DNA of 64,000 nt from Deferribacterales bacterium. Its GTDB lineage: Bacteria > Chrysiogenota > Deferribacteres > Deferribacterales > Geovibrionaceae. Under the pieces are notes generated by a model. That model saw nothing but the letters and a program-made list of their open reading frames with translations, ran no database searches and had not been told where the DNA came from. A program made the position numbers and the translations under genes. This document shows positions 9,201 to 59,385 of the stretch, one piece after another (the stretch's first letter is position 1; the number at the start of each line of letters is the position of its first letter). The stretch is taken from the NCBI GenBank assembly GCA_050253075.1, contig JBFWJS010000001.1, positions 448,001 through 512,000 of the forward strand. The letters run 5' to 3'.

Positions 9201-10139
9201 TATAGTGGACCGACGAATTGAGACAGTCAGAGTAGATTTCTAATTGTTTTTTAGCATAAAATACTAAGAGAAATCGGAGGTCCACATGAGCAAAAAGAGA
9301 CGGCAGTTTTCTGCCGAGCAGAAGACTAAGATCGTACTTGAAGTCCTTCAGAGTGATTTGACTCTGAACCAGATTGCCAGCAAATATGAAATATCTCCGA
9401 ACGTGATCCAGAACGGGAAGAAACAGTTTCTTGAGAACGCTTCTATCGCTATGGAGCCTTCTAAAGTCGTTAAAGAATATAAAGCTGAAATAGATGAGAA
9501 AGATAAAGAAATAGAAGCTCTGCATAAAGCTCTCGGTAAAGCGACCATTGAGCTGGAGTTTGTGCAAAAAAAGCTCGTCAGCTTGGGCTCATCAAATAAG
9601 AGTCTTGTGGAGCCTGAGCTGGAAAACATTAATATCGCAAGACAGTGTGCCCTTTTAAAAGTCAACAGGAGCACATTTTACTATAAGCATATCGATCGCA
9701 GCTTTGAGAATAGTCTCTTGAAACGTCGCATAAGCGAGTTGTACACAGAGCACCCAGAGCTCGGTTACCGCATGATCTAGCATCAGATTAAAGACGAGGG
9801 ATTCAAGATCGGCAAGAATAAAGTGCTGAAGCTCATGCAAGAACTAGGTATCAAATCTATTCATCCTAAGAAGAAAAAGCTTACCTCCATCAAAAGCATT
9901 GAGCATGAGACATATCCATATCTGCTTTCATTTTTACGCAATGATAAGAAGCAGGTTGTTGCCGAGTACGCCGATCAGGTGGCACAGCAAGGTTATTCTT
10001 GCCTGAAAGCTTTCAAATACTATGGATACATCGCTTGTATATGAAGTACATGGATGTGCATATGAATCAGGTGAGAATAGCGGCATAGAAACACATTAAG
10101 AAATCAACTTATGCTGTCTTGACAAGCGGTGGCACTATA
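9201..10139 (+). mobile_element. Internally deleted IS3-family element
   Basis: Imperfect 25-bp terminal IRs: TATAGTGGACCGACGAATTGAGACA (9201-9225) versus the reverse complement of 10115-10139, TATAGTGCCACCGCTTGTCAAGACA. They enclose transposase fragments. Confidence 0.8.
9286..10088 (+). pseudogene. IS3-family transposase pseudogene
   Basis: HTH N-terminus (RRQFSAEQKTKIVLEVL), RQCALLKVNRSTFYY and an in-frame TAG at 9778-9780. YPYLL..DQV then jumps to WHSKVILA*KLSNTMD (another frame, TGA at 10004) and then to a tail MDVHMNQVRIAA*. The DDE core is mostly missing. Confidence 0.85.
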
Positions 10140-11595
10140 ATTTTTTAAAATCAGCTATTTCATTCATGAATGAAGGTCTATTATTATATTTGAAGTTTTT
10201 GAGTACTACGTTGATTTTGTTTGTATCAATAAATTGGCACGCTGGAAGCCACTTGTTTATCAATTCTTTATACATAGCAGGGTTCCCTTGTATTGCCCCT
10301 ATAAAGTACAGAAGAATAATATGATCATCATGATAATTACGTTCAATATTTACGTATGAGCTTGTTTGAGCGTATACTTTATTAATAATTTCATTAGGTA
10401 GCTCAATCATTTTGCTAGCCCATTTGTCCGTAATGTCAAATTGGCTTACGGTATGATATTTCCTACCATCGTAAAGTTGTAAGAATGCTTTGTCAGCATC
10501 CATTTGATAGTTAATTTCTAAAGAGATATTGTTTGGGTCATTGAATGTAATTGAAAACGGAGCATGACGAAATTTACCGTTTTCTTTGAAAGCACTCCTA
10601 AAAGAGGTGCTGTTTTCAAGTTCAGGACTGCCCCATGTTTGAAAAGCAGGGTTATAATAAACAAAATTACTTCTTTTGTCGGTATCTTGCTTCGTTCCAA
10701 CATCTAGCACGGTTGATTTGTCATTAACTTTTATTATTATATCGTCTATAAAAAGTGCATTCGTTGCATTTCTAGGGCGAATAAACCTTAACAATAATCG
10801 AGGGACTTTTTTGCTAAGATTATAGCTACTCCACGCCACGCCTTTTTCGTCGATGATATCAAATTCGTTAATTTTGTCATTAAAAGCATTTAATCCATTT
10901 TCTAATAGTATTTCAATTTCTGGTATATTAATACCTTTTGATTTCAATAGCTCATTTGTTTCATATAGTCCTAACAAGCATACAGCGAATCCATTTAGAA
11001 CAAAAGTCGGTTTCGGGGTCGGGTACTCTTCGTACCACCATGAATTTTCGCTGATGGTTTGTTTAACACCGCCATCACTTACATCAATATAGAATATCTT
11101 AAGAGCTTTTATGATGTCATCCAAGTATTTGTCATCTTCAGTTATGTAGTAAGCGCGTGCCAGTACTGCTAAGTTTTGTCCTTGTGCCATACCGCTTGCC
11201 CAAGGCGAGTTCAGGTAGTAAACTTCATTTACGTGGTAATTGAAATTATACCACCAGCTATATATCCCGTCACGATTAGGTACTAGATTGTCATGTAACC
11301 AATTTGCATAATTCATAAACTTATTAATAGTGTCTTCATTAGCATCATTAATGTACTGGCTAAAGTTCATTAATGCATGTCGGCTAACTCCTTCAGGATT
11401 ATAGCTCCATCCTATACCGTAAGCAGTATAGTCTGTCATTATTATACCATTTTCATCTAATTTCTCTCGAGAGCTATTACCCAAGTAAATCCGATCTCCA
11501 TAATATTGAGTTAAGGGAAGAGAGAGAATGTAGTTTTTTTCGATGTTAAGTGACGAGAATATAGATATGATAAGTAAGAAAAATAGTTTATTCAT
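10135..11595 (-). CDS. Exported D-glucuronyl C5-epimerase-family protein with an inserted beta-rich domain
   Basis: Hydrophobic N-terminus; WASGMAQGQ, WWYEEYP, FVLNGFAVCLLGLYE, WSSYNL and YHDDHI match the GLCE-type catalytic barrel motifs. AT-rich. Confidence 0.8.
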   Translation of the reverse strand: MNKLFFLLIISIFSSLNIEKNYILSLPLTQYYGDRIYLGNSSREKLDENGIIMTDYTAYGIGWSYNPEGVSRHALMNFSQYINDANEDTINKFMNYANWLHDNLVPNRDGIYSWWYNFNYHVNEVYYLNSPWASGMAQGQNLAVLARAYYITEDDKYLDDIIKALKIFYIDVSDGGVKQTISENSWWYEEYPTPKPTFVLNGFAVCLLGLYETNELLKSKGINIPEIEILLENGLNAFNDKINEFDIIDEKGVAWSSYNLSKKVPRLLLRFIRPRNATNALFIDDIIIKVNDKSTVLDVGTKQDTDKRSNFVYYNPAFQTWGSPELENSTSFRSAFKENGKFRHAPFSITFNDPNNISLEINYQMDADKAFLQLYDGRKYHTVSQFDITDKWASKMIELPNEIINKVYAQTSSYVNIERNYHDDHIILLYFIGAIQGNPAMYKELINKWLPACQFIDTNKINVVLKNFKYNNRPSFMNEIADFKKL

Positions 11596-12155: not shown

Positions 12156-13466
12156 TTGAGTTCTTTCAATCATAAAATATGTATTATCGGTTTAGGATAT
12201 GTTGGCCTTCCATTGAGTGTTGCTTTTGCTCAGAAAGGCTACAGTGTCAAGGGTTTCGACATCGCACAATGGCGTATAGACGAGCTGTCCAAAGGGACAG
12301 ACCGCACGCTCGAAGTTTCAAGTGAAGACTTGAAATCAGTCTCTTCAGGAGACTCGGCAAAATTGAAATTTACAAATCAGCTCGAAGAGATAAAGGACTG
12401 CAACACATACATAGTTACTGTCCCGACTCCTATCGATGAATATAAAAACCCTGACCTCACGCCTCTGATCAAAGCGAGTGAGACAGTGGGCAAGGTCCTC
12501 TCCAAAGGGGATATAGTAATATATGAATCAACAGTTTATCCCGGCTGTACGGAGAATGACTGCGTGCCTGTTCTCGAGAAGTTCAGCGGTATGACATTCA
12601 ACAAAGATTTCTTCTGCGGATATTCTCCAGAGCGTGTGAACCCGGGTGATAAAAACAGACCTCTCACAAACATCATGAAGATCACCAGCGGAAGCACACC
12701 TGAGATCGCTGAAATTATCGATAATATGTATAAATCTATCATCACTGCGGGCACTCACAGAGCATCATGCATTATGGTTGCCGAGGCGGCGAAAGTTATC
12801 GAAAACACACAGCGGGACCTTAACATTGCACTGATGAACGAGCTCGCACTGATATTCGACAGAATGGGCATAAACACCAACGAAGTCATTGAAGCAGCAG
12901 GCACAAAGTGGAACTTCCTTAAGTTTCACCCGGGACTTGTAGGCGGTCACTGCATCGGCGTGGACCCTTACTATCTCACATTCAAATCACAGGCCATAGG
13001 TTATAACCCTGACATGATCATCTCAGGCAGAAGAGTAAACGACAGTATGGGTAAATTCATCGCTGAGAAAGCTACGAAAGAGATGATAAAAGCAGGAAAG
13101 AGGATAAAAGGCTCTAACGTTCTCATCGCAGGCTTTACATTCAAAGAGGACTGCCCTGACGTTAGAAACACAAAGGTAATAGACATCTATAACGAACTCA
13201 TTGAGTACGGCATGTGCATAGATGTGTATGACCCTGTGGCAGATGTTGACGCCATCGAGCATGAATACGACATAAAGCTCATGTCTGAGCTTAAAAATAA
13301 AGCCTACGACGCTATCATCATAGCCGTAAAACATAAATCATTTTACGAGCAGTTTAAGGCTGAGAAGCTGAATGATCTTTACAATGACTTCGGCATACTT
13401 ATAGACGTGAAGAGCATGATAGATAAGAATGATCTTCCGGAGAACATAAGCTACTGGTCTTTATAA
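12156..13466 (+). CDS. UDP-N-acetylhexosamine 6-dehydrogenase (WbpO/TviB/WbpA-like)
   Basis: TTG start after GAGGTG; GLGYVGLP, VPTP, YESTVYPG, YSPERVNPG, AKVIENTQRD, GGHCIGVDPYYL and FKEDCPDVRN. Confidence 0.93.
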   Translation: MSSFNHKICIIGLGYVGLPLSVAFAQKGYSVKGFDIAQWRIDELSKGTDRTLEVSSEDLKSVSSGDSAKLKFTNQLEEIKDCNTYIVTVPTPIDEYKNPDLTPLIKASETVGKVLSKGDIVIYESTVYPGCTENDCVPVLEKFSGMTFNKDFFCGYSPERVNPGDKNRPLTNIMKITSGSTPEIAEIIDNMYKSIITAGTHRASCIMVAEAAKVIENTQRDLNIALMNELALIFDRMGINTNEVIEAAGTKWNFLKFHPGLVGGHCIGVDPYYLTFKSQAIGYNPDMIISGRRVNDSMGKFIAEKATKEMIKAGKRIKGSNVLIAGFTFKEDCPDVRNTKVIDIYNELIEYGMCIDVYDPVADVDAIEHEYDIKLMSELKNKAYDAIIIAVKHKSFYEQFKAEKLNDLYNDFGILIDVKSMIDKNDLPENISYWSL

Positions 13467-13476
13467 GGGGTGACGA

Positions 13477-14127
13477 ATGTCTGATTTTTTCGTTCATGAA
13501 AGTTCATACGTCGATGACGGCGTATCCATTGGCGACGGTACTAAGATATGGCATTTCTGTCATGTGCTGAGCGGTACATCCATAGGCAAAGGCTGCTCTT
13601 TCGGGCAGAACTGCGTTGTGGGCCCCAATGTTCAGATAGGCAATAATGTTAAAGTACAGAATAACATCTCCATATACGAAGGGCTTGTGATAGAGGACGA
13701 TGTCTTCCTCGGGCCTTCATGTGTGCTTACAAACGTGACAAACCCAAGATCACAGGTGAACAGAAAGACCCTTTATGAAAAGACTCTCCTGCGCAAAGGC
13801 TGTTCCATAGGCGCCAATGCCACAGTAGTATGCGGTATTACCGTCGGCAGATACTCATTCGTCTCTGCTGGTGCGGTGGTTGTCAGCGACGTGCCTGACT
13901 ATGCTCTTATCATGGGTGTACCTGGCAAGTTTAAAGGCTGGATGAGCAGGCACGGACACATGCTTAAAAATCCTGATGCCGATGGCGTTATGACATGCCC
14001 TGAAAGCGGTCTCAGGTATAAAGAAGTAGAGCCTACGGTTTTGAAATGTCTCGATCTGGACGAAGAGGCTGAACTCTCCGCAGACCTTTCCGTGGGCAAG
14101 GTCACCTACGACGAGCTTAAAAAATAA
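13477..14127 (+). CDS. wbpD: Hexapeptide-repeat N-acetyltransferase, WbpD-like (UDP-GlcNAc3NA N-acetyltransferase)
   Basis: VHESSYVD, IWHFCHV, GQN, KVQNNISIYEG, GPSCVLTNVTNPRS, GWMS..G and CPESG. Confidence 0.88.
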   Translation: MSDFFVHESSYVDDGVSIGDGTKIWHFCHVLSGTSIGKGCSFGQNCVVGPNVQIGNNVKVQNNISIYEGLVIEDDVFLGPSCVLTNVTNPRSQVNRKTLYEKTLLRKGCSIGANATVVCGITVGRYSFVSAGAVVVSDVPDYALIMGVPGKFKGWMSRHGHMLKNPDADGVMTCPESGLRYKEVEPTVLKCLDLDEEAELSADLSVGKVTYDELKK

Positions 14128-14148
14128 ATAAACTGATAAGTTGTTCAG

Positions 14149-14178
14149 AGGGGCTTTCGAAAGAGGGCCCCTTTTTTT
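14149..14178 (+). terminator. Intrinsic terminator after wbpD
   Basis: AGGGGCTTTC-GAAA-GAGGGCCCCT followed by a T run. Confidence 0.85.
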
Positions 14179-18905: not shown

Positions 18906-18906
18906 G

Positions 18907-43598: not shown

Positions 43599-44555
<957 letters not shown>

Positions 44556-46428: not shown

Positions 46429-48205
46429 TCAATTGTCAATAAGTGTCAAAAATGTCTCTAAAATGTATAAAATGTATAAAAATAATTTTGCTAAGATTAT
46501 GGATCTCCTGGGATTTCCTAGCAGTAAGAATTATAAAGAATTTTGGCCACTTAGAGATATTAATTTAGATATTAAAAAGGGTGAGAAGGTTGGCATAATT
46601 GGTCAGAATGGAGCAGGTAAAACGACTTTGCTCAGCATAATTTCGAATAATATCAGACCCACTGAAGGGATGATAGATGTGCATGGTCATGTAAATGCTC
46701 TTTTTACTTTGGGCACTGGATTTCATCCGGAATTTTCAGGTAGGAAAAACATAAGATCCTCTCTTGCTTTTCAAGGAGTAATCGGTGCTGATGTTGTGCG
46801 TATAGAGAATGAGATCATAGAGTTTGCAGAACTGGAAAACTTTATCGATCAGCCTGTTAAGACATATTCAGCCGGTATGTATGCCCGACTCGCTTTCACT
46901 GTGGCAACTGCAATAGAACCGGATATTCTTATAATTGATGAAATACTAGGTGCAGGAGATGCATATTTTGCGTCAAAAGCATTAGATAGAATGAAAAAGC
47001 TGACAGGAGGAGGGACAACGGTTCTTTTTGTCTCTCATGATTTATCGTCAGTGCAGAGAGTTTGTGACAGGTGTATTTGGATAGATAAAGGTAAAATTAG
47101 AGAAGACGGTGCAACTTTAGACGTAATTAAATCATATAATGCCGATGTTAGGAAAAGGGAAGAACTTAGGCTCCTTTCACATAATAGCGGCGTAAAAATG
47201 AATAATATAGACAGTAATTCCAGTCAGCTGCTTTTTAGGTTTATTACATCCGATCAAAGAGCACCTGAAACAAAAGGGCTATTCATACATAAAATCAGTT
47301 TGTTTGTTAAAAATAAACTTTATGCAGAAATTAATGTCGGTGACTCAATGGATAACTCTAAAGAATATGACGGTTATATAATTACAGATGATAAGATAAA
47401 CTGGTCTGATAGTATTAAGAAAGAAGGCTTATGGGCAAGGGAATTTAGAGATTTTGGCGCTGAGTATGTCCATGCCATAGGTGTTTTTGTTGTACCAAGC
47501 GTAATAGACTATAGAAATATCAGCTTTGCTATTGAGTATTTTGACGATTTTGTTGATGAAGTAAATTTTGAGTTTTTTGATACTAACAAAAACAGTTATG
47601 TCAATTTAGCTAATTTAAACTCATCAGGTACAGAAAAATGGCTCTCTCAAACTGATATATCTTTAAAACCGAAGGCTCTTTGTGAAGAGAGTAATTCCGG
47701 TGATGCCCCGCAAACTGAAGAAGACAAGCTGTTTAGTACTGATGTCTACGGCACAGAAGAAATGATGATTACCAATGTCAGTTTTCTGTGTAAAGATTTA
47801 GAAGAGAGATTCGTATTTACTCTTGGTGATGCTCTAACTATTCGGGTTGATTATAAATGTTTTGAAGAAATTTATAATCCGGTTTTTGTGGCTGCAATAT
47901 ATAACAGTGAAGGTGTAGCAGTATCGCAACTGATAGATAAACAAGCAGGATATAGCCTTGCCCGTGCACAAAAACGAGGTTTTGTCGAATTCATTATTGA
48001 TAATTTAAGAATCGGACAAGGGGAGTATTTAGTTTCAGTAGCAATATTTCACGATGTAGATCTTGCAAATCCGGTTGAACAGAGAACATATTGTTTACAT
48101 GATAGGAAATATAAATTCAAAATTGTTCAGCCACACGGGCTTAATATGAACTTAGGGCTTTTGCAACAAGATTTTAAGGTGGAATACAAAGATGGAAATG
48201 ATTAA
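46421..48205 (+). CDS. wzt: Polysaccharide ABC exporter ATPase with an extra central domain and a Wzt C-terminal domain
   Basis: GQNGAGKTT, YSAGMYARLAF, IIDEIL and VSH; the C-terminal YGT..ITNV..GEYLVSVAI segment is Wzt_C-like; 594 aa. Confidence 0.92.
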   Translation: MYDQLSISVKNVSKMYKMYKNNFAKIMDLLGFPSSKNYKEFWPLRDINLDIKKGEKVGIIGQNGAGKTTLLSIISNNIRPTEGMIDVHGHVNALFTLGTGFHPEFSGRKNIRSSLAFQGVIGADVVRIENEIIEFAELENFIDQPVKTYSAGMYARLAFTVATAIEPDILIIDEILGAGDAYFASKALDRMKKLTGGGTTVLFVSHDLSSVQRVCDRCIWIDKGKIREDGATLDVIKSYNADVRKREELRLLSHNSGVKMNNIDSNSSQLLFRFITSDQRAPETKGLFIHKISLFVKNKLYAEINVGDSMDNSKEYDGYIITDDKINWSDSIKKEGLWAREFRDFGAEYVHAIGVFVVPSVIDYRNISFAIEYFDDFVDEVNFEFFDTNKNSYVNLANLNSSGTEKWLSQTDISLKPKALCEESNSGDAPQTEEDKLFSTDVYGTEEMMITNVSFLCKDLEERFVFTLGDALTIRVDYKCFEEIYNPVFVAAIYNSEGVAVSQLIDKQAGYSLARAQKRGFVEFIIDNLRIGQGEYLVSVAIFHDVDLANPVEQRTYCLHDRKYKFKIVQPHGLNMNLGLLQQDFKVEYKDGND

Positions 48206-51200
48206 TTATTATGAGCAAAAAGAACTATGGGATAGAGACTTAACCCCACAAGAAGCTGAAAGGATTGATTTAGTGAAGAAAATCATTCCTGAGGATGTGG
48301 TCACTATTCTAGATGTGGGTTGTGGCAACGGCGCACTTACTAACGGATTAGAAGGATACGATATTACAGGCTTAGATAAAAGTGTCGAAGCATTGAAATA
48401 TTATAAACATAAAAAACAACACGGGAGTATTGATGAGCTCCCTTTCGAAGATAACTCATTTGACTTTTTAATATGCAGTGATGTGCTTGAGCACTTGGAT
48501 GCTAATGCTTTTATTAGTGCTATCAATGAATTAAAGAGAGTTTCAAAAAAATATATACTTATTATCTCGCCAAATGAAGAAGATCTTGCCGCTAATTTTG
48601 TCAAATGCCATACATGTAGTCATATATTCAATATCAACCTTCATGAAAGAAGTTTAGGCTTTAATGATTTGGTAAGTCTGTTTAGCAGCGATTTTGTTAA
48701 CTTGTTATATACATATTTCGGAGATAAATGGGCCAATGAGCCAGAGGTAAAATATAAGTTCAAGAGGGCTTATAATAAAGGATACAAGAGCTGGGAACAC
48801 TCTGTATGTCCATGTTGTGGAACAAAACAGAAAACTATTACAGATAAATCTGATCCAGCGACTGATATTGTAGTGAACCCACATGTCATGGGATACTACA
48901 ACCACTCTACAGAGGTTATGATCTTATTTTGTGATGCTGCCCAGTCGGGTGAATTTTATAATAACAATATTGAAGACAGTAAAATCGTTGTTTTGAATGA
49001 TAGTGCCAATAAGGATATAACTTTTATCCATAGGCAGTATATAGACTGTAGAAAGCCTCTTATTAAACAATATGCAGAGGCATATCCTCAAATTGCTTAC
49101 CTTTTAAACACTGATAGAGATTCATGGAGCTCAGCAGATGGGCAAACAGTATTAAAAATAGGTGAGAACAATAACTTTGCACAAGTGTATTTCCCTGCAG
49201 AAGAAGGGATGAAGTTCCTGCACCTGAAAGTGAAATTTGAGACCTATAGCAAAGTTAATGTGAATGTATACGATGCTATAGACTCATACAGAAGATTAGG
49301 TGTTATAAGCAACACCGAACTAGATAACTTTGTTGAGTATAGATTCGAATTGCCTTCTGATCTGGTATTGCCGAACGAGGGCTTAATTATAGAATTTGCT
49401 GTTGCAACCGGTAAAGGTGAGATCAGACTTGTCTTCGATAAACTTTACATTGATCATGATTTATATAGTGTTAAATGTGAAAAAGATTTCAAAAGTAATG
49501 TTTTCGGAAAAAAGATGATTGGACATGTTGTAGGTGACAAGATCCATATATCAAGTGGTTACTATGCCGATCTCGGATTAGATGATTATTTATTAATTGA
49601 TGGAAACCTATATTGGAATGTTAGCAATTCATTTGAAGTGTTTAATAAAAATAAACCAATACATGACAAAGATTACTTCTTTTATCGACTTATAGGTCAT
49701 TATGACGAATCATTTAGAGAGCTAGAAGCTAAATTGGCAGGAGCATTTAAAGCTCGTGAGGATGATAGTGTTGATTACGCTAAATATATGCAGAGCAATA
49801 CCGAGATCCTCCAAAAAATGACTGCTTTCAGATCAGATGTTAGCCAATCTATGGGCGAGTTTGAAAATAGCTTATCCAGCATACGGGCCAATGTGGAGCA
49901 GTTTGAAAATGCCATATCTGCAATTAAGGCGAGCACTTTAGATGCTGATTCTAAAATGCAGAATAATCTTGATTCAGCTGTGAAGCAGTTCGAAGACACC
50001 TTATCCAAAATGCAGGCAAATATTATAGATGCTGATTCCAAAATCAAAGATAAATTGGAGACTGTTGAACATCAGGTAGAAAGTAAAATAAACTCTGTTA
50101 ATCGTAAACTTGCGTGGTTGGAAGAGGCCTATTCAAATGTTCTAATAAGTGAAGAAAGCTACGATCAATTACGATCACAAATATTCACAATATCCAACAA
50201 TCTACAAAATGCCATATCTGCAATTAAGGCGAGCACTTTAGATGCTGATTCTAAAATGCAGAATAATCTTGATTCAGCTGTGAAGCAGTTCGAAGACACC
50301 TTATCCAAAATGCAGGCAAATATTATAGATGCTGATTCCAAAATCAAAGATAAATTGGAGACTGTTGAACATCAGGTAGAAAGTAAAATAAACTCTGTTA
50401 ATCGTAAACTTGCGTGGTTGGAAGAGGCCTATTCAAATGTTCTAATAAGTGAAGAAAGCTACGATCAATTACGATCACAAATATTCACAATATCCAACAA
50501 TCTACAAAATGCCATAGACAACAAAGCAGTGTTTAATTACAGGATTGGTTTAGTCGACGAGCAGCTAAAAGACGCTCAGCAATATTATGAAAAGATACCG
50601 GATGTGGAAAAGCAGATATATGAGCTTCAGTCACAAGTTTATACGTTATCTAATACGTTACAGCAGAGTATAGATAATCGCTCAATACTCAGCTATGACA
50701 TGTCTGTCATCTCAGATAGATTTAAAAATACAGCGTGCAAGATCAAGTCAAAACTTTCAAGATTTGTCAAAAAGACCATTTCGGCAACTCGGCAAATGAA
50801 AGTAGTAGCACTGGCTCAACGGACACATGTTGACACATCTATGAAGCATTTATTAATCCTCACTCCGGATGTTAGGATTGATAGGCGTACTGTGCAGATG
50901 TGCGAAAGTATGATCAAAGAGTTTGGTATTAGATGTACTATTATCGCTGCCTTGGAAGCCGACGATGATTTTGTTTCAGACAACCTCATTGTTAAGAGGA
51001 TTTCCCCTTATGATATTTGTGGTGACGGCGGAACAGACTGCTCTTGGCAGGCATCCAAGTGTTTCGACTTAGAGAAATTCTACTGGCTTCATAGCAAATA
51101 CTTAACAAAGGCTTTAGAAGAGCAAGCAGACTATGTTATGTGCTGTGATCTGCCTGTGCTGCCATGTGCAGTGCATGTCGCAAAACATATGGGTGTTCCG

Positions 51201-52007
51201 TTAATATACGATGCCCATGAGCTATACCCCGAGCAGGCATGTTTCTCAGATGAACAGAGAAGTCTTTATAAGAGTATAGAAAAGTACTACATAGGCTTAC
51301 CTGATTTAGTAATAACAGTGAATGATAGTATCGCCATAGAAATGGGCGAAAGGTATGGCATAGAAAAACCTAGTGTTATACTTAATGCCATTGATGCTCC
51401 GCAGAACTTTGATGTAGACAGAAAGTATGACTACTTCAGAGAGCAATTACCAATAAGAAGTGATCAAAAGATCGTACTCTTTCAAGGCGGTTATTCCCCA
51501 AATCGTAATCTTGAGCTTTTTGTCAGATCGGCAAGACACATAAAAGACAGCAGTGTTGTTCTTGTGCTGATGGGATTTGGAGATTTTGGTGCTGAGCTTG
51601 AAAAGATTGCAAAAGAAGACAAAACAATAAACGAGAAAGTCTTCTTCTTTCCTGCCGTTGAGCAATCAGTGCTCCTAGAGTACTCTGCCTCTGCAGATGT
51701 GGGTATAATTCCATATCCTCACGTTGATCTTAACAGCTATTACTGCACTCCTAATAAGCTTTTTGAGTTTATACAGGCAGGACTGCCAATAATTGCCAAT
51801 GATTCTCCTGAACTGAATAGATTTGTTAAAGAAAATAATATTGGATACTCCGGTACTATATTGTCCGAAGAGGATATTGCGTCTCTTATAGATGAATATT
51901 TTGAACAAAATATAGATTATAAGGATAATATAAAAGAGGTAAGGCCGAAAATAAACTGGCAGACGGAAGAAAAGAAATTTATTAGAGTTATCAAGGAGCT
52001 GTTGTGA
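48192..52007 (+). CDS. Multidomain protein: class I SAM methyltransferase, beta-rich module, long coiled coil and GT4-type glycosyltransferase
   Basis: ILDVGCGNG..LPFEDNSFD..SDVLEHL; CHTC and CPCC motifs; heptad-rich region; C-terminal DRR, YDAHELYPEQ, FQGG..NRNLE and TPNKLFEF. Confidence 0.88.
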   Translation: MEMINYYEQKELWDRDLTPQEAERIDLVKKIIPEDVVTILDVGCGNGALTNGLEGYDITGLDKSVEALKYYKHKKQHGSIDELPFEDNSFDFLICSDVLEHLDANAFISAINELKRVSKKYILIISPNEEDLAANFVKCHTCSHIFNINLHERSLGFNDLVSLFSSDFVNLLYTYFGDKWANEPEVKYKFKRAYNKGYKSWEHSVCPCCGTKQKTITDKSDPATDIVVNPHVMGYYNHSTEVMILFCDAAQSGEFYNNNIEDSKIVVLNDSANKDITFIHRQYIDCRKPLIKQYAEAYPQIAYLLNTDRDSWSSADGQTVLKIGENNNFAQVYFPAEEGMKFLHLKVKFETYSKVNVNVYDAIDSYRRLGVISNTELDNFVEYRFELPSDLVLPNEGLIIEFAVATGKGEIRLVFDKLYIDHDLYSVKCEKDFKSNVFGKKMIGHVVGDKIHISSGYYADLGLDDYLLIDGNLYWNVSNSFEVFNKNKPIHDKDYFFYRLIGHYDESFRELEAKLAGAFKAREDDSVDYAKYMQSNTEILQKMTAFRSDVSQSMGEFENSLSSIRANVEQFENAISAIKASTLDADSKMQNNLDSAVKQFEDTLSKMQANIIDADSKIKDKLETVEHQVESKINSVNRKLAWLEEAYSNVLISEESYDQLRSQIFTISNNLQNAISAIKASTLDADSKMQNNLDSAVKQFEDTLSKMQANIIDADSKIKDKLETVEHQVESKINSVNRKLAWLEEAYSNVLISEESYDQLRSQIFTISNNLQNAIDNKAVFNYRIGLVDEQLKDAQQYYEKIPDVEKQIYELQSQVYTLSNTLQQSIDNRSILSYDMSVISDRFKNTACKIKSKLSRFVKKTISATRQMKVVALAQRTHVDTSMKHLLILTPDVRIDRRTVQMCESMIKEFGIRCTIIAALEADDDFVSDNLIVKRISPYDICGDGGTDCSWQASKCFDLEKFYWLHSKYLTKALEEQADYVMCCDLPVLPCAVHVAKHMGVPLIYDAHELYPEQACFSDEQRSLYKSIEKYYIGLPDLVITVNDSIAIEMGERYGIEKPSVILNAIDAPQNFDVDRKYDYFREQLPIRSDQKIVLFQGGYSPNRNLELFVRSARHIKDSSVVLVLMGFGDFGAELEKIAKEDKTINEKVFFFPAVEQSVLLEYSASADVGIIPYPHVDLNSYYCTPNKLFEFIQAGLPIIANDSPELNRFVKENNIGYSGTILSEEDIASLIDEYFEQNIDYKDNIKEVRPKINWQTEEKKFIRVIKELL
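49906..50516 (+). repeat. Exact 300-bp tandem duplication within the 1271-aa gene
   Basis: 49906-50216 is identical to 50206-50516; AAAATGCCATA occurs at 49906, 50206 and 50506; in frame (100 aa). Confidence 0.97.
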
Positions 52008-55000
52008 AAAAAATATTTATATTGTTTATATTGTTTGTTGTAACATCTGTATTCGGGCAGGGCCTTGATGTTAATTTGAAGGGCGAATTAGTCAATTATA
52101 ATTTCCATTATAAAGCAGGCAGCACAATTATGCCTGTGTCTATAACACCGTATGCGGATGGATATTATTTAATTGCAAATTACACGGATGTGTTTTTACT
52201 AAATACCGATACCGGTGATATGTATAAATTTGACATAATTCGTAATGCAGATGAATCAAAAAATTTAGACAGTTTCCATAAATATATTAGAAGTGCTAGC
52301 ACTAATTCGAATGATTTACAGTCACCAAATGTATTATTTATGCCAACAGGATTATTTTATTCCCGAAAATATGAAAAACTGTATGTTGCCAACTATAAGG
52401 GGGATAATATTTTGATATTCAATGTTGACTTGGCTTCGAAAACATTACTTTATCAAGGTGAAATTCAAACAAAAAATACAAAAGGACCAGAAAATGTTTT
52501 TGTAACCAATGACGGAAATTATTTAGCGTGTGCTAATTATGATGGAAGTAGTGTTTCTTTGTTTGAACTTAGTACATATAAAAAGTTTAAAGAGATATGG
52601 AGCACAGATATAGGTCAGGCGCATGGTGTTACAGTTCAAGATGGGTTTGTATATGCTACGGGACTGACAAAAAGGAAAATATACAAGCTAGACATTAAAA
52701 ATGGAAAAATAGTAAAATCTATTGGAAAAATTGGTTCAGACCCTTCAGAAAACGGTTTTTTGTGGCCGACTTCAATAAACAATTTAGACGATGAAAGCCT
52801 TGTAGTGAGTGATGCACATACTGGATACATTTATATTTTAGATAAAGATAGCCTTCATATAAAGTCATACTTTGGTGGGAACTCTCTGGGTTATAATTAC
52901 TTGCATATGCCATATTGTGTTGTTGTTGATGGAGAGAGATATCTTATTGCAAGTACTTTCCAAGATCGAATTGTAGAGGGAAGCATAAAAAACTGGGCTG
53001 CTGAAAAAAGTTTTATTTTTTCAGGTAGGAAATGGGCGTCATTAGATAATAAAGAAATAAATGCATATATAGATAATTATGATGTGTATATTTATAAAAA
53101 AGGGCCAAAACTAAAAATATTAGGCAAAGAATACACTATGGGTTTTGGACACCTGTATCCTGTTGATAAAGATATACCTATATTGAGGTTACCAGATACT
53201 AAATCAATTAATAATAACTCTGGATACTTTTACTTTACAGATTTATTGAAAATTAAGAATTCTAATGTCTTATTTAGTCCTCAATCTAAAGCTGCATTGT
53301 ATATAAAAGAAGTAAAAGGCGTTAATTATGTATTTCCTTTTGAGCTAGATTCAACTGATTATTGGCTGTATGATGGTGCTTTAATTAATTCTATTGGACA
53401 ATTTGACTTATCCACTGTTATGGATGTATTTGATTCTAAAATAGATAATATAGAAAAGTCTAGACATAAGAATGGATTATTGGAACTAATGGACTTCTAC
53501 CAAATATATAATAATGAGAAATGGCCTTTTGTTGATTTTAGTTTTGACGAATTCAATATAAAATTTCAGGAAGTATTTAATACAGCTGCTGGGAAAGAGT
53601 TTTTAAAAGCTTATAATCAAATGTCTATTGATACGTTGCCTGCTGAGATAAAAAATATAGCCGCAAAGTACTACCGAACAGTATTAAGAAATAATTATGT
53701 TGATATGAATGAGTTTTGTATTGTGCAAATGCTAACGGGCTTTGTTACTGATGCTCAAATATTCCAATATAACAGATACATTTTTGAAGGCTGTCAGGGC
53801 ACTAACTATTATGCTGGCTATAGTCCCAAGGCACTTGAAACCGTGTCTATAAACGATTATGTGTCAGCAAATTCTATTCAAGATTCATGTTTTCTTGTTG
53901 AAAATATGAATTATTATGGAGATTTAAAGATAAATATCACATGGTATGATTTAGATCATTACGGTGTAAATTTTGATATTTATGGTTTTAGTGAAAATAA
54001 TAATGAATTTTTATTATTGCCCGTAAAGAATAATGAACCAAGAAATGATAACGGACTAGCAGTAAATACATACCATATTAAAACTAAAAATAAAATTACT
54101 AAACTTAAGTTTATTCTTAAAAGCGCTAATAAGCAAAATCGCTTAATAATGAGAGAATTTGCTATAGCCGAGGACGATAAACAGAATAAAAAAAATACTA
54201 GTAATGCATTTAGCTTAAATGAGCTAATATCTTTAAATAAAAAAGTGAATCAGACAATTATATATGGAACAGGGAAAGATTTTAGAGAGGATCTAATAAA
54301 TGGTAAAGATTATGCCAGTTTGATAAAGGAACTCGGAAGTGGCCATTGTGGTTATTATACTTACCTTTTAATGAGAGAGATTAAGTCTAATAATGAATGG
54401 CGTGGTTATGATATAAAAACATATGATAATAGAGTTCATAGCGTTATAGAAGTAAATATTGGAGGTAAATGGCTAACATTTGATCCAACTCTAGGAATTT
54501 ACTATGACAAGAGTATTAATGAGCTGATTAGTAATAATGAGACTCAACTGAATGGTAGTATTTGTGATCAAGTAGAGATGAGGTTTAAAGGATATTGCGG
54601 CAACTTTTTCTTCAAAGCTGTAGAAAGTTTGAAAATGTATAATTCGTTTGCTGGATATGAGTATAATAAACTTATTAAGAGTAACGTGTTAGTAGGCTCT
54701 GCTGATAGAGTAGCTAAAGGTCACGAACTTGAAAAACTTTATGATGGTAATGCAAACACTTACTTCTCTTCAGCGGGTAATAAAATAGATATCAAACTGA
54801 ATAAAATGCAAGTGTACAAAATTACACTAGAAGCATTGAGGTATTATGATAAGGAAAAAAATGATGAAATCATTATATCGCCTAAGGAAATGGTCTTAAA
54901 TTTATACTGTGATGGTGTTTTAGTTGGGAATTATAAACTTGTAGCTCAGGAACCAAAACTAATGAGTGAGATATATTTTGATAATTCTACTTTGATAGAT

Positions 55001-55075
55001 CAAATAGAGTTGAAAATGGACAAAATGTATAATACGAACTTAGGTTTTGTCCTTAAAAGCATAGATTTATTTTAA
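52004..55075 (+). CDS. Large exported protein: signal peptide, NHL/YVTN-like beta-propeller, discoidin-like domains and a transglutaminase-like core
   Basis: MKKIFILFILFVVTSVFG; PTGL..LYVANY, GPENV..ACANY and WPTSI..VVSD repeats; GHCG..HSVIEV..GKWLTFDPT; LYDGNANTYFSS. Very AT-rich. Confidence 0.7.
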   Translation: MKKIFILFILFVVTSVFGQGLDVNLKGELVNYNFHYKAGSTIMPVSITPYADGYYLIANYTDVFLLNTDTGDMYKFDIIRNADESKNLDSFHKYIRSASTNSNDLQSPNVLFMPTGLFYSRKYEKLYVANYKGDNILIFNVDLASKTLLYQGEIQTKNTKGPENVFVTNDGNYLACANYDGSSVSLFELSTYKKFKEIWSTDIGQAHGVTVQDGFVYATGLTKRKIYKLDIKNGKIVKSIGKIGSDPSENGFLWPTSINNLDDESLVVSDAHTGYIYILDKDSLHIKSYFGGNSLGYNYLHMPYCVVVDGERYLIASTFQDRIVEGSIKNWAAEKSFIFSGRKWASLDNKEINAYIDNYDVYIYKKGPKLKILGKEYTMGFGHLYPVDKDIPILRLPDTKSINNNSGYFYFTDLLKIKNSNVLFSPQSKAALYIKEVKGVNYVFPFELDSTDYWLYDGALINSIGQFDLSTVMDVFDSKIDNIEKSRHKNGLLELMDFYQIYNNEKWPFVDFSFDEFNIKFQEVFNTAAGKEFLKAYNQMSIDTLPAEIKNIAAKYYRTVLRNNYVDMNEFCIVQMLTGFVTDAQIFQYNRYIFEGCQGTNYYAGYSPKALETVSINDYVSANSIQDSCFLVENMNYYGDLKINITWYDLDHYGVNFDIYGFSENNNEFLLLPVKNNEPRNDNGLAVNTYHIKTKNKITKLKFILKSANKQNRLIMREFAIAEDDKQNKKNTSNAFSLNELISLNKKVNQTIIYGTGKDFREDLINGKDYASLIKELGSGHCGYYTYLLMREIKSNNEWRGYDIKTYDNRVHSVIEVNIGGKWLTFDPTLGIYYDKSINELISNNETQLNGSICDQVEMRFKGYCGNFFFKAVESLKMYNSFAGYEYNKLIKSNVLVGSADRVAKGHELEKLYDGNANTYFSSAGNKIDIKLNKMQVYKITLEALRYYDKEKNDEIIISPKEMVLNLYCDGVLVGNYKLVAQEPKLMSEIYFDNSTLIDQIELKMDKMYNTNLGFVLKSIDLF

Positions 55076-55078
55076 TAA

Positions 55079-56281
55079 ATGAAAAGTATTATTTTTATAA
55101 CATATGATTCTCCATATATTGATAGGCGTATTTTGTTAAATGCAAAAATCGCCACAAATATGGGTTATAAAGTGGATATTGTTTGTCCTTGTGCAGATAG
55201 CTCTGTCGACTACGGAGATATCGGGATAATCAACTTGTTTGATACTGTGAATAAAAATAATATTATTCATATTAAGGACCGGATTAAAAAATTTGCCCCT
55301 AACTGGTTCTTCAGATTTGCAAGATTATGCTATAAAAACTTTCTCAATAAAGGCGAGCATATTCCGTTTAAAGAAGCGATGATTGAAAAGGTACTTACTT
55401 TGAAAGCGGATGTCTATGTTGCTAATGATCTTACAACCTTGCCTGCCGGCGTCGCAGCTAAAAAGAAATTTTCTGCAAAGCTAGTTTATGATGCCCATGA
55501 GTTTTATACGGAGCAGATCACTTTGTCAGAAAAGGACAAACACATATTGTCCGAAGTTGAAAAAGATTTAATACATGAGGCAGATAGTATAATTACAGTT
55601 AATGAAGATATTGCTGGACTTTTTACGGAACGCTACGGATGTGCAGGCATAACAGTGATACAAAATATCGTTATATGCGATAAACCGTCTGTACTCTATC
55701 TACATGACCTGATAGGACTTGAAAGAACAGCTAAGATTGTTTTATTTCAAGGTGGTTTGATAGGAAACAGAAACCTTGAAAGTTTAATACATATTGCATC
55801 GAGACTTCATTCGGCTGTTGTCGTGCTCGCAGGGTGGGGAGATAAAGAGAAACAGCTTAAAAAATTAGCTGAGTCGATGAAGATATTGAATAGTAAAGTG
55901 TTTTTTGTCGGTAAAATTTCTCAGGAAGATCTGGTCGCATACGCCGGTTCGGCATCAATTGGTTTAATACCTTATTCAGCGATTGATATTAATACGCAGT
56001 ATTGTACCCCAAATAAACTATATGAATACCTTTGTGCAGAGGTGCCAATTGTTGCGAATACAGGGCTCAAAACGGTTGACCGCATAATTAAAACACTAGA
56101 TTTGGGCATTGCAATCGATTTTAGTAGTTATGATGAAGCAGCCGTTGCCATTGAGAAATTGGTTAAGGATGACGATAAACTTGCCAGATTTAAAGATAAT
56201 ATTAAAAATAATAAAGAATTGTTTTCTTATAATACGCTTGAAAAAGCCTTTGTAGAAATAGTGAAATCATTGGAGATATAA
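55079..56281 (+). CDS. GT4-family glycosyltransferase
   Basis: DRR, ANDL, VYDAHEFYTEQ, FQGG..NRNLE and CTPNKLYEY. Confidence 0.9.
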   Translation: MKSIIFITYDSPYIDRRILLNAKIATNMGYKVDIVCPCADSSVDYGDIGIINLFDTVNKNNIIHIKDRIKKFAPNWFFRFARLCYKNFLNKGEHIPFKEAMIEKVLTLKADVYVANDLTTLPAGVAAKKKFSAKLVYDAHEFYTEQITLSEKDKHILSEVEKDLIHEADSIITVNEDIAGLFTERYGCAGITVIQNIVICDKPSVLYLHDLIGLERTAKIVLFQGGLIGNRNLESLIHIASRLHSAVVVLAGWGDKEKQLKKLAESMKILNSKVFFVGKISQEDLVAYAGSASIGLIPYSAIDINTQYCTPNKLYEYLCAEVPIVANTGLKTVDRIIKTLDLGIAIDFSSYDEAAVAIEKLVKDDDKLARFKDNIKNNKELFSYNTLEKAFVEIVKSLEI

Positions 56282-58174
56282 ATGTGTGGATACCTTTCTT
56301 GGATTTCTAAAACAGAAATAAATGATGAGAATTTTAGAGCTTCTCTCAGAAAAATGGATCATAGAGGTCCGGATGATGAAGGCTTTTTCTTTACTGACGA
56401 CAGACATGTTGCTTTCGGACATAAGCGACTTAGCATCATAGATCCGAAGGCTGGTCAGCAGCCAATGAAAAATAGCACCGGTGATATTGTTGTGATATTC
56501 AATGGTGCTGTTTATAACTTTCTTGAGATCAGACAAGAGCTTATTAGCGAAGGGTATCCTCTTAAGACATTTTCAGACACGGAAGTAATTATATATGCTT
56601 ATGAGAAATGGGGCGAAGGATGCGTTGAAAGATTTAACGGTATGTTTTCGTTCGTCATTTATGACAAGAAGAAGCAAAGGATATTCGCAGCTAGGGATAG
56701 AGTGGGGATTAAACCTTTCTATTACTACTCTTCAGGCAAAGACCTTATAATCGCATCTGAAATTAAAGCGATACTTGAGTGTGATGCTGTCGATACGGCA
56801 GTTGATCAAAAGGGGCTCGTAGACTATTTATCATTTCAGTTCTATTTAAGAGATAAAACGCTTTTTAGAAGTATAAACAGGTTGGAACCGGGTCATAGAA
56901 TGCTCGTTGACCTTACAAAAGACGAGATAAAGCCGGAAATATCCAAATACTGGGACGTGCGGATCAAAAATGATAATTCGCTTAAAACGGAAGAGGACTA
57001 TCTTGAAATCTTTATGGAGCTTCTGAATGATTCCATAAGGCTACGTCTTCGGGCTGATGTCCCTCTGGGAGCTCACCTTAGCGGTGGTCTGGATTCATCA
57101 ACTGTGGCTTCTTTAAATGCTGCAATGCTTGATGGTAAACAGATACAGACATTTACAGGCCGCTTTGATGAAGGTACTGCTTTCGATGAAAGCTATTATG
57201 CTAAAATGGTTGCAAATAAAATCAATGCTCAGTACCACGATATCCTTATCGATCATCAGCAGTTCAGGGATAATTTTGAAAAGATCGTCTGGCATATGGA
57301 TGAGCCTGAAGCCGGTCCCGGTGTATTTCCACAGTTCATGGTATCGCAGTATGCGAAAGATCATGTTAAGGTTATCCTCGGAGGACAGGGCGGGGATGAG
57401 CTTTGTGTTGGTTATGTCAGGTACCTTGTTGCCTATTATGAGGAACAAATGCGTGATGCGATCCTCGGAGATAATGCCGCAGTGAATAATATCAGCAATC
57501 TGTCAGAAATGCTGTATCAGCTGGATGGTTATCAGCCTATGATGAAAGAGCAATACGCATCAGGCTTATTTGGCGAATCTTTTGACCGATATTACAAACT
57601 TGTAAACAGGATGGATTCATTGCAAGGGCTCATCAATGGAGATGTTTTCAGCGCAGCCAACTATTCTCCTTATGAAGAGATGTCAGGCTTGTTGGATCAG
57701 TCCGACTTCAAGAACAGCTCCTATGTGAACCAGATGACATATCTTGACTTTAAAACGTCGCTGCAAGGCCTGCTGCATGTTGAAGACAGGACGAGTATGG
57801 CCAGCTCGATTGAATCCAGAGTCCCTCTCTTAGATCATCGTATAGCAGAATTTATATTTAATCTTCCTATGGATATAAAGTTCAAGAATGGGGAACTCAA
57901 ATATTTCTTTAAAAAAGCGATTAAGAATATTCTTCCCGATGAAGTACTGAACAGAAAAGACAAGAAAGGCTTCCCCACACCGTTGAATATCTGGCTCAAA
58001 GGGCCGCTGAATGACTGGGTGAAAGAGATATTAAACGACAAGAGGACAAAAGAAAGAGGCATATTTGAAAGGAAAAGCCTTGAAACAATGGTGGAGTCAG
58101 AAGGCATGTTTAACAGGTCTGTCTGGGGCGTTCTTAATTTAGAGCTCTGGCACAGGCAGTTTATAGATAAATAA
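56282..58174 (+). CDS. asnB: Asparagine synthetase-like glutamine amidotransferase (probable sugar-carboxyl amidotransferase)
   Basis: N-terminal MCG, HRGPD, RLSIID, FNG, LSGGLDSS, GGDE, DRTSMASSIESRVPLLD and KKGF; located inside the glycan operon. Confidence 0.92.
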   Translation: MCGYLSWISKTEINDENFRASLRKMDHRGPDDEGFFFTDDRHVAFGHKRLSIIDPKAGQQPMKNSTGDIVVIFNGAVYNFLEIRQELISEGYPLKTFSDTEVIIYAYEKWGEGCVERFNGMFSFVIYDKKKQRIFAARDRVGIKPFYYYSSGKDLIIASEIKAILECDAVDTAVDQKGLVDYLSFQFYLRDKTLFRSINRLEPGHRMLVDLTKDEIKPEISKYWDVRIKNDNSLKTEEDYLEIFMELLNDSIRLRLRADVPLGAHLSGGLDSSTVASLNAAMLDGKQIQTFTGRFDEGTAFDESYYAKMVANKINAQYHDILIDHQQFRDNFEKIVWHMDEPEAGPGVFPQFMVSQYAKDHVKVILGGQGGDELCVGYVRYLVAYYEEQMRDAILGDNAAVNNISNLSEMLYQLDGYQPMMKEQYASGLFGESFDRYYKLVNRMDSLQGLINGDVFSAANYSPYEEMSGLLDQSDFKNSSYVNQMTYLDFKTSLQGLLHVEDRTSMASSIESRVPLLDHRIAEFIFNLPMDIKFKNGELKYFFKKAIKNILPDEVLNRKDKKGFPTPLNIWLKGPLNDWVKEILNDKRTKERGIFERKSLETMVESEGMFNRSVWGVLNLELWHRQFIDK

Positions 58175-59385
58175 TGAAAATACTATTTGTTAACGAGTAT
58201 ATAGGAACACCATACCACGGCATGGTGTACAGACAGTACTATCTCGCGAGAGAAATGGTGGCAAGAGGGCATGAGGTCTGGATAGTTACAGCCTCTAATA
58301 CCCATTTGCTGCTTTCACCTCCTAAGGTTGATAAAAACCTTACTCATGATGTTATAGACGGTATAAACTACCTTTGGGTGAAAATGCCGTATTATAAATA
58401 CTCGAAAAGTTTCGCAAGGATACGTAATATGTTCCTATTCATGATAAAACTGCTGCGCCTCGATATCAGTAGGTTTGTCGTGCCTGACTTCATAATAGCT
58501 TCCAGCCCTTCAGTTTTTTCTATAAAAACAGCTCTAAGGTGGAAAAAAAGCACAAATGCAAAAGTTGTATTCGAGATAATGGACATCTGGCCGTTAACGC
58601 TCACGGAGTTTACCGGATTGTCTAAACGGAATCCGCTTATACGCTATATGAAGAGCTGTGAAGAGACTGGTTATCGCAATGCCGATGCAGTTGTTTCGGT
58701 TCTGGGCGGTTTTACCAGATATCTATCTGAGAATGGATACAGTGTGAAAGCCTATGAGTGTATCCCAAACGGCGTCTATCTTAACGAGGATTCGTTTGAA
58801 ACAAGTACAGACTCTAACGACAAGCTGTCAAAGATAGACGGCAACAAGATCACAGTCGGGTATGTCGGTACTCTCGGTATCGCAAATTCGCTGGATAGTT
58901 TTATTAATGCTGCGCTTCTGCTTAAAGAGGACAAACGCTTTCAGTTTGTTCTAGTCGGTGACGGAGGCGAGAGGAGCAGACTCGAAGAGCTCGCCGACGG
59001 TGCAGAGAATATTGTTTTTACAGGTTCTGTGGACAGGAGCGATGTTAAAGCAGTTTATGAGAAACTGGATATATGCTATTTCGGAGTATTGAAAAAGAAA
59101 GTGTTTGAATACGGCATCAGCCCGACCAAGCTACCTGATTACATGTATTCGGGGAAACCTGTGATAGGGGCTGTCTCTGATTATACTGATCTTATCGAAC
59201 GTTCCCGCTGCGGGCTCACAGTTGAGGCCGAGAATATCGAAGAAATAGTATCCGCCATAAAGAAATTAGCGAATGACAAAGAATACTGCAAAGAGATGGG
59301 GGCAAGAGGCCGTTCATACGTCGCTGAGTACTTGTCTTATCCTGCCTTGTCAGAAAAGTTTATTAAATTTCTTCAAAGCCTATAA
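58174..59385 (+). CDS. GT4-family glycosyltransferase (WbuB-like)
   Basis: LAREMVARGHEV, DIWPLTL, IPNG, YVGTLGIAN and SPTKLPDYMYSGKP. Confidence 0.9.
   Translation: MKILFVNEYIGTPYHGMVYRQYYLAREMVARGHEVWIVTASNTHLLLSPPKVDKNLTHDVIDGINYLWVKMPYYKYSKSFARIRNMFLFMIKLLRLDISRFVVPDFIIASSPSVFSIKTALRWKKSTNAKVVFEIMDIWPLTLTEFTGLSKRNPLIRYMKSCEETGYRNADAVVSVLGGFTRYLSENGYSVKAYECIPNGVYLNEDSFETSTDSNDKLSKIDGNKITVGYVGTLGIANSLDSFINAALLLKEDKRFQFVLVGDGGERSRLEELADGAENIVFTGSVDRSDVKAVYEKLDICYFGVLKKKVFEYGISPTKLPDYMYSGKPVIGAVSDYTDLIERSRCGLTVEAENIEEIVSAIKKLANDKEYCKEMGARGRSYVAEYLSYPALSEKFIKFLQSL

Follow-up and report, generated by a model that had tools for sequence, protein, structure and literature searches.

Gene content of the two loci

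The DNA analysed here, a window of 64,000 nucleotides from a Deferribacterales bacterium (positions 448001-512000 of contig JBFWJS010000001.1, in a 3.04-Mb genome of 99.9% completeness), carries two loci that together resemble a system for the synthesis, export and editing of a surface polysaccharide made of diacetamido-uronates. All of the genes on which the original prediction of this system was built were recovered at their positions in an open reading frame (ORF) check of the window. Locus 1 contains a low-GC gene (GC 0.34) for a C5-epimerase-like protein, divergent from wbpA and wbpD, and locus 2 is a 16-kb run of genes on the same strand with a GC content of 0.30-0.43, compared with 0.475 for the contig. 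The pathway had been proposed as split over these two loci; both of them are real, but the genes lie in three places, with wbpE on contig C2.

The epimerase gene (10135..11595, minus strand) encodes a GlcE-family protein of 486 amino acids (aa) that begins with a hydrophobic segment, assigned to PF06662 with 122 bits against a cut-off of 23.3 (E 2e-35) and matching the GlcE structures 4pw2 and 6hzz (E 2e-18). The catalytic residues given for GlcE are E499, Y500, N510, Y560 and Y578 (PMC13308652). Residues E190, Y191, N201 and Y421 of the epimerase align to catalytic residues of 6hzz, and Y258 is an equivalent by motif and family alignment only; with these residues kept, the GLCE-type identity proposed for the protein was borne out. 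A hydrophobic N-terminal segment was detected in 5 of 10 epimerases, with three more just under the cut, and in 95 of 122 long homologs of the 1023-aa protein described below, compared with 0 of 87 cytoplasmic controls, in a crude test that measures hydrophobicity only and is not SignalP. From these segments, both the epimerase and the 1023-aa protein are likely secreted. The inversion of C5 by the epimerase is predicted to take place on the polymer.

The 1023-aa protein of locus 2 (52004..55075, plus strand) had been described as a secreted transglutaminase-fold protein. A transglutaminase (TG)-like module is indeed present, but the protein is mostly an NHL propeller, which had been missed. 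The N-terminal hydrophobic segment and the six-bladed NHL propeller (aa 19-340) are accompanied by beta and helical structure to about residue 585, a beta-sandwich (588-725), the TG-like module and a terminal beta domain. The model has a mean predicted local distance difference test score (pLDDT) of 86, and the NHL match of the propeller reached Z 29.3 with a root-mean-square deviation (rmsd) of 2.7 over 256 aligned residues. Fold searches with the whole model recovered the propeller alone, and a feature search of the ESM Atlas gave generic NHL clusters only, under 0.9.

The TG-like module (54218..54628, plus strand; about 140 aa) was recognized by its conserved triad, C782-H812-D827, and by transitive profile matches. 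The Cys, His and Asp are kept in 27 of 30 aligned domains, and the motifs G780-H-C782, H812 and F826-D827 follow the TG core order and show both flanking features of WbmE, a Gly two places before the Cys and an aromatic residue before the Asp (PMC2615507, Fig. 2 legend). A hidden Markov model (HMM) of 23 propeller-borne copies reached PF01841-positive domains at E 1e-6 and 3e-5, and the best PDB row for the profile of the module was 3isr (E 0.05). Homologs numbered 387 at E<=0.001; among the best 150 of these, most are 500-620 aa long and cover the N-terminal part only, and the beta-sandwich neighbouring the TG module was found in 31 of 151 propeller homologs. To judge from these alignments, an NHL-propeller family without a name is the conserved core of the gene and the TG-like module is an add-on.

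The export machinery is encoded by the genes for Wzm (45646..46428, plus strand; PF01061, six hydrophobic peaks), an ATP-binding cassette (ABC) permease, and for Wzt (46421..48205, plus strand; PF00005 and PF14524), in which an ATPase, an insert and a Wzt_C binding module are combined. The adjoining gene (48192..52007, plus strand) encodes a 1271-aa protein with an N-terminal methyltransferase (MTase, aa 40-120), a middle domain, a Pro-poor span and a C-terminal GT4-like glycosyltransferase (GT, aa 1082-1248), assigned by Pfam, composition and a weak SMC match; the architecture is thus the one that had been predicted for a chain-length ruler. The Pro-poor span, 383 aa with one Pro and four Gly (about aa 501-883), is predicted to be a coiled coil from its Pro content and the weak SMC match (aa 628-868). 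An MTase-coiled coil-GT layout has been described for Klebsiella O7 and O12 (PMC11231755), and by its domain order the 1271-aa protein is likely a terminator-ruler-polymerase. In relatives, MTase and GT are either fused or separate. The middle domain (48972-49721), whose position is conserved in relatives, is without a family match, and Cys pairs stand after the MTase domain.

An exact, in-frame tandem duplication of 300 bp (100 aa) was detected in the predicted coiled coil (49906..50505, plus strand). In the Logan contigs of two runs that are possibly the source of the DNA, the repeat unitig had 1.8x and 1.7x the depth of the flank and the junction unitig 0.7x and 0.6x. Since repeat and junction unitigs occur in both runs, the duplication exists as DNA. 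These depths, contig depth being no copy number, give a weak hint of a mixture of one- and two-copy cells and of a possible chain-length switch.

The route WbpA-WbpB-WbpE-WbpD-WbpI yields UDP-D-ManNAc3NAcA, a 2,3-diacetamido-mannuronic acid activated with uridine diphosphate (UDP). The five enzymes are all encoded in the genome, so the precursor pathway that had been proposed fits. WbpA (12156..13466, plus strand) is a TviB/WbpA-like UDP-HexNAc 6-dehydrogenase, just under the cut-off (579 bits vs 592) and the sole close copy in the genome. WbpB, WbpD and WbpI match solved structures of the same enzymes far better than their general families: the 3-dehydrogenase WbpB (43608..44555, plus strand) matches 3oa2 (E 3e-119), the WbpD/WlbB-type 3-N-acetyltransferase (13477..14127, plus strand) has 3mqg as its best PDB match (E 2e-65), and the WbpI-type UDP-diacetamido-uronate 2-epimerase (44567..45649, plus strand) matches 8sxv and the UDP-2,3-diacetamido-glucuronate 2-epimerases at E 3e-117, compared with E 8e-46 for the plain UDP-GlcNAc 2-epimerase 1f6d. 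The WbpE-like DegT gene lies outside the window (C2:556453-557589) and scores 265-327 bits to DegT genes within related clusters. No short-chain dehydrogenase/reductase (SDR) epimerase of the WbmF/G/H type was detected in a scan limited to 45 proteins of the window.

Downstream of the 1023-aa gene, and assigned by domain or profile matches, are an AsnB-like glutamine amidotransferase (56282..58174, plus strand) and a WcaI-like GT4 glycosyltransferase (58174..59385, plus strand), which probably performs the adaptor step. A further GT4-like glycosyltransferase (55079..56281, plus strand) shares 36% identity with the ruler protein's GT. A WecA-like initiating transferase (60514..62634, minus strand; PF00953, with TIGR02380 below cut-off) follows; at 706 aa it has a long membrane extension and a soluble C-terminal part without a Pfam family. 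It is regarded as a host gene because it also adjoins lpxC in same-genus genomes. As this gene adjoins locus 2 and a WaaL-like ligase gene is present at C1:549363-550514, lipopolysaccharide (LPS) is favoured as the carrier.

The insert shared by Wzt and the epimerase

An unusual domain common to both loci was part of the original prediction. It was located inside the barrel of the epimerase (aa 265-402; 10390..10803, minus strand), as a 138-aa beta-sandwich between Y258 and Y421, and in Wzt (aa 268-416; 47222..47668, plus strand), as a weakly carbohydrate-binding module (CBM)-like beta-sandwich between the ATPase and Wzt_C domains. Seven plain PF06662 homologs of the epimerase are missing it. 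Pairwise similarity between these inserts of about 140 aa is weak (BLAST E 0.2; phmmer E 0.004 among 13 proteins), and BLAST alone was considered insufficient as proof. The shared domain was accepted after profile tests: hhalign gave 96.6% and E 5e-10 for four epimerase against four Wzt sequences, an HMM of the epimerase insert returned the window Wzt as its top non-training match among 5797 ORFs, and the reciprocal search held. A second-round HMM found only Wzt proteins and epimerases, and within this genome the insert is clear only in the Wzt and the epimerase of the two loci. The middle domain of the MTase protein was tried as a third copy and not counted (insert HMM, E 0.06-0.2).

The insert model is an all-beta sandwich with pLDDT 94 and gave no Foldseek match at E<=0.001. 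The ESM Atlas contains one cluster of 451 Wzt proteins whose insert adopts this fold (TM 0.84), which indicates that the three-domain Wzt is more widely spread than the epimerase. The insert likely binds a glycan. It was not detected in 400 Desulfobacterota or 400 Alphaproteobacteria drawn, and among the genomes searched the system is rare.

Recurrence of the gene set in other genomes

Co-occurrence of the epimerase with a wzm/wzt cluster had been named beforehand as a point on which the prediction could fail, and on this point it was not refuted. In 4/4 other genomes that have an insert-bearing epimerase with gene context, the epimerase was found beside MTase/GT genes: G043 (a Pseudomonadales metagenome-assembled genome, MAG), G047 (a Lawsonia MAG), G050 (an Adiutrix MAG) and G085 (a gammaproteobacterium). 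A Wzt with the same insert stands beside it in three of the four, none having been found in G050. All four also carry a WbpD ortholog (51-54%) and AsnB-like genes, and in all four the TG module is adjacent, fused or, in G085, broken. A first genome scan with a single protein as query had given no match.

G043 has a single-locus version (L014), with wbpE, wbpB-D, wzm, wzt with insert, MTase, GT, propeller with TG, epimerase with insert, asnB and wbpI. In G085, which was the sole match in 399 randomly drawn Gammaproteobacteria and was found without the propeller search, wbpA, B, D, E and I, wzm, wzt with insert, MTase, GT and a double epimerase are followed by a TG remnant at the end of contig C19 (L106:1291-1822); the TG module is broken by a stop, a frameshift and an apparent insertion sequence (IS), and the epimerase frame is intact. 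In G047, wzm, wzt with insert, epimerase, MTase/GT and an epimerase-epimerase-TG fusion were found, and at another contig end TG, asnB, wbpI and wbpB. In G050, a 2017-aa epimerase-propeller-TG-TG fusion lies beside MTase/GT (L021:4444-10494); its last two units are near-identical F5/8-TG units. An epimerase-epimerase-TG fusion was also recognized by Pfam in P0163 (PF06662 twice and PF01841), a protein without DNA context. All four fused propeller-TG loci lie in glycan clusters, three of them with asnB in view. Two other candidates for a TG module were rejected: the C-terminal part of P0002, in which a C-H-D motif is present but hhalign gave 0.6% and there is no Pfam match, and the small protein beside the L014 epimerase, an F5/8 domain with a TG-like score of only E 0.08. 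In the Lawsonia MAG, Wzt (L055:8374-11253) continues beyond Wzt_C into a fused radical SAM/SPASM domain.

The editing genes are not constant. Plasmid NZ_CP017887.1 of P. frederiksbergensis carries wbpA, B, D, E and I, wzm, wzt with insert, MTase, a coiled-coil protein, GT, propeller-TG, asnB and two further GTs. Neither the epimerase nor a TG module was found for the propeller clusters of G041, G045 and G048; G041 carries two SDR genes instead, resembling the nucleotide-level route of Bordetella. The epimerase and the TG module are therefore optional accessories of a core cluster. The proposal that all of these genes form one system is supported by the recurring linkage and the fusions, but it has to be amended on this point, the plasmid cluster being without the epimerase and most propeller homologs without TG.

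PF06662 was present in 3 of 10 propeller genomes and in 7 of 399 random Gammaproteobacteria, an informal comparison, since the two sets differ in taxa. For four of the six other PF06662 genomes of the random draw, the gene lies in wbpD/E/I clusters of Wzx/Wzy look in two, among asnB and formyltransferase genes in one and outside glycan genes in one. Plain PF06662 genes in wbpD/E/I clusters of Wzx/Wzy look stand at L082:9503-10513 and L084:9564-10559 and are promising candidates for tying the family to L-gulo diacetamido-uronates. From such clusters, the link between GlcE-like proteins and diacetamido-uronates extends beyond ABC systems.

For the propeller, 29 loci were examined, including the near-duplicates L019/L020 and L033/L034, after 11 weak loci had been discarded as generic propellers (6/16, 4/21 and 1/2 in three successive sets). 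Thirteen of the 29 stand among wzt, MTase, GT, asnB or wbp homologs; the other 16 include the phage loci L013 and L060 and several on short contigs. Stand-alone propeller genes were also seen in phage DNA near a tail gene (L013:9509-11461), on a viral contig (L060:4095-6434) and in DNA that only looks prophage-like (L015:9839-11197). The phage-borne propellers are candidates for the binding or conversion of surface glycans; the family had no match in the annotated phage set.

The slots of both loci (groEL to the GATase gene, and cinA to lpxC) are variable across same-genus genomes. The epimerase family was absent from the 40 relatives searched (PF06662, 0/40), and the 1023-aa protein had no real homolog in them, with one weak propeller match. 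Because of the variable slots, the low GC and the families not found in these relatives, the cassette is strain-specific and was likely acquired. Locus 1 is also adjoined by a broken IS (9200-10130) with a transposase helix-turn-helix and an in-frame stop, between groEL and the epimerase gene, and copies of it are 94% and 85% identical in two relatives. A promoter scan of locus 1 remained near shuffle level (24 vs 16.5 ± 3.9). Elsewhere in the window (38460-39353), a protoglobin domain is fused to a PsiE membrane domain.

Proposed mechanism, alternatives and meaning

The reading favoured here, at a probability of about 0.55, is that a mobile cassette builds a methyl-capped, ruler-measured diacetamido-uronate O-antigen, which is exported by Wzm/Wzt and then deamidated and C5-epimerised in the periplasm. 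By orthology, WbpA, WbpB, WbpE, WbpD and WbpI would make UDP-D-ManNAc3NAcA, and, to judge from Bordetella wbmC/I/Z, AsnB would likely amidate the nucleotide sugar at C6. The chain would likely be extended by the WecA-like primer, an adaptor GT and a pair of paralogous GTs, and the MTase on the distal side of the coiled coil may cap it at ruler length, as its architecture suggests. Wzt_C would read the cap, with the extra Wzt insert as a likely second glycan-binding module. After export, some of the amides would be hydrolysed by the TG-like module in the manner of WbmE. The acids set free in this way would then have their C5 inverted, from beta-D-manno to alpha-L-gulo, by the GlcE-type enzyme, which carries the insert found in Wzt; the propeller would probably serve as a glycan-binding platform for the editors. 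Deamidation is placed before epimerisation because GlcE acts on acids and epimerase-TG fusions exist. WbpI is an equilibrium enzyme, and for this reason a D-gluco to L-ido inversion would also be possible. The precursor pathway, the ruler layout and the catalytic residues fit the original interpretation, whereas deamidation and C5-epimerisation after export, together with the substrates, the order of the steps and the L-gulo product, are what we infer. A broader version is offered tentatively and with some doubt: a mobile, modular periplasmic kit in which a cytoplasmic amide masks the uronate, a TG-fold module unmasks chosen residues once the chain is exported, an adjacent or fused GlcE-type epimerase flips them to L-gulo, and the same glycan is recognized on either side of the membrane by a single new binding module, carried by Wzt and by the epimerase.

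Several known systems resemble parts of this scheme. In Bordetella bronchiseptica, the wbm O antigen is described as a diacetamido-uronate polymer with Wzm/Wzt export and glutamine amidotransferases (PMC2615507, PMC2279256), on which a periplasmic Cys-His-Asp transglutaminase-fold enzyme acts after assembly (PMC2615507); here the corresponding features are predicted from the genes. In that organism, L-GalNAc3NAcA is made on the nucleotide by SDR 3,5-epimerisation (PMC2279256), whereas here a polymer-level GlcE-type enzyme is predicted and neither locus has an SDR. The TG module is fused here to an NHL propeller or to epimerases, and the cap is predicted to be methyl. The MTase-coiled coil-GT architecture and the C-terminal binding module of Wzt are shared with E. 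coli O9a WbdD, K. pneumoniae O12 WbbB and O7 ORF6 (PMC11231755), from which the present system would differ in its uronate/uronamide sugars, GT4-like modules, extra Wzt insert and periplasmic editors. The epimerase shares its fold, catalytic residues and predicted N-terminal signal with human and zebrafish GlcE, Bermanella RED65 and E. coli O112ab Gae (PMC3068255, PMC13308652, PMC7685785). In 2011, Raedts listed prokaryotic PF06662 genes that encode a signal peptide and lie close to O-antigen and type-specific polysaccharide genes (PMC3068255), and for E. coli O112ab a C5-epimerase gene and iduronic acid are reported (PMC7685785). The 140-aa barrel insert common with Wzt, the ABC-ruler link, the TG/propeller fusions and a predicted diacetamido-mannuronate substrate instead of glucuronic acid set the present proteins apart from known PF06662 enzymes. 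Alginate AlgG (cited in PMC2615507 and PMC13308652) also converts D-manno to L-gulo on an exported polymer in the periplasm, but its fold is unrelated and its pathway is of the synthase type.

A number of observations weigh against the editing scheme favoured here. The equivalent of Tyr500 is replaced by Val, Ile or Leu in 8 of 10 insert-bearing epimerases, no clear cleavage motif is seen in the window epimerase, and a hydrophobic N-terminus is missing from 2 of 10 epimerases. The TG-like module of the window has no direct match to the Pfam transglutaminase family (PF01841) or in the PDB, and of the 151 propeller homologs (best 150 of 387), no more than 26 carry such a module. From this low count and from the broken TG beside an intact epimerase in G085, TG deamidation is not always needed. 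The nearest solved folds for the insert are mostly CBMs, but the matches are weak (Z 5-6.4, rmsd 3-3.9) and below the trust level of the tool. Glycan genes are missing alongside 16 of the 29 propeller loci. Three of the four supporting genomes came through the propeller search, only G085 being independent; no PF06662 was found on plasmid NZ_CP017887.1, whose chromosome was not searched, and the epimerase was not found in the propeller clusters of G041, G045, G048 and G049, which are MAGs and may be incomplete.

Part of this evidence would also suit a plain Bordetella-like system with amidation, ABC export and WbmE-like deamidation, in which the epimerase of locus 1 is inactive on the chain or serves another glycan. 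The epimerase gene is separated from locus 2 by 32 kb and has its place in a variable slot next to an IS remnant, the core cluster occurs without it, and the genome has other low-GC islands. This explanation is nevertheless considered improbable, since the insert of the epimerase is common only with this Wzt, its gene is divergent from wbpA and wbpD, which locus 2 needs, its catalytic residues are kept and it stands inside the cluster in 4/4 other genomes with context. An activity of the TG-like module as a transamidase, by which an amino acid or another amine would replace the C6 amide, or the chain would be linked to protein or peptide, appears rather unlikely. The superfamily both forms and breaks amide bonds (PMC2615507), and the relation of the window module to the TG cores of Pfam is a distant one; against this, AsnB adjoins the TG module in three of four propeller-TG loci, the sole characterised O-antigen case is a deamidase, and the fusion of TG to an enzyme family acting on uronic acids fits the production of free acids.

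The site of epimerisation might also be different. In the working model for archaeal Agl32 (PMC12624080), the lipid-linked chain is epimerised at the cytoplasmic face before export; applied here, the N-terminal segment would be an anchor and the insert, which is also part of the cytoplasmic Wzt, would work in one compartment, and one Lawsonia epimerase is without a hydrophobic N-terminus. This alternative was judged quite improbable: signal-like N-termini prevail in the family and in some members end in a clear AxA or lipobox-like sequence, the family is fused to propeller, TG and F5/8-type domains, and Agl32 belongs to a different family. A somewhat better chance, still an unlikely one, is given to the propeller being a real enzyme. 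As a glycan hydrolase, lyase or transferase, it would trim or clear the exported chain or attach it, and the product may be a non-LPS, protein- or lipid-linked glycan. The propeller part is the conserved core: most loci have it without TG, it also stands alone or in phage DNA, and it has conserved Tyr, Glu and His residues. Its closest folds, by contrast, are non-catalytic NHL binding domains, and WaaL-like and WecA-like genes are present. Many of its invariant residues are presumably ordinary NHL repeat positions, which counts against an enzyme. Such an activity is compatible with the favoured scheme of export followed by deamidation and epimerisation rather than exclusive of it.

Rulers, and the deamidation of an ABC-exported diacetamido-uronamide chain after its assembly (WbmE), are known. 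The combination seen here, the shared insert, the epimerase-TG fusions and the propeller family had no description in the literature searched, which did not include most subscription carbohydrate journals. Wzt proteins with an additional domain may already figure in a survey of Wzt and terminator proteins. L-gulo diacetamido-uronates occur in polymers of Pseudomonas, Vibrio and actinomycetes, and a polymer-level origin of L-gulo residues has already been proposed in the carbohydrate literature. According to PMC13308652, the only other cases in which hexuronates are known to be epimerised at the polymer level are glycosaminoglycans, alginate and one archaeal glycan, and one bacterial GlcE-type enzyme alone is reported there as active, on heparin.

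The system offers a natural substrate candidate for bacterial GlcE-type enzymes, and the clusters with the epimerase (this genome, G043 and G085) and without it (the P. frederiksbergensis plasmid) form a natural control pair. New C5-epimerase specificities would be useful for chemo-enzymatic synthesis. If the proposed reading is true, the Wzt/epimerase insert and the propeller, both of them uncharacterised as domain families, would be candidate glycan binders or enzymes, and the propeller would be a new glycan-active family that has also been acquired by phages. L-GulNAc3NAcA in surface polymers would in that case stem from bacterial enzymes of the GlcE family, and the O-antigen would be edited sequentially, unmasked and then epimerised, in a manner similar to that of heparan sulfate.

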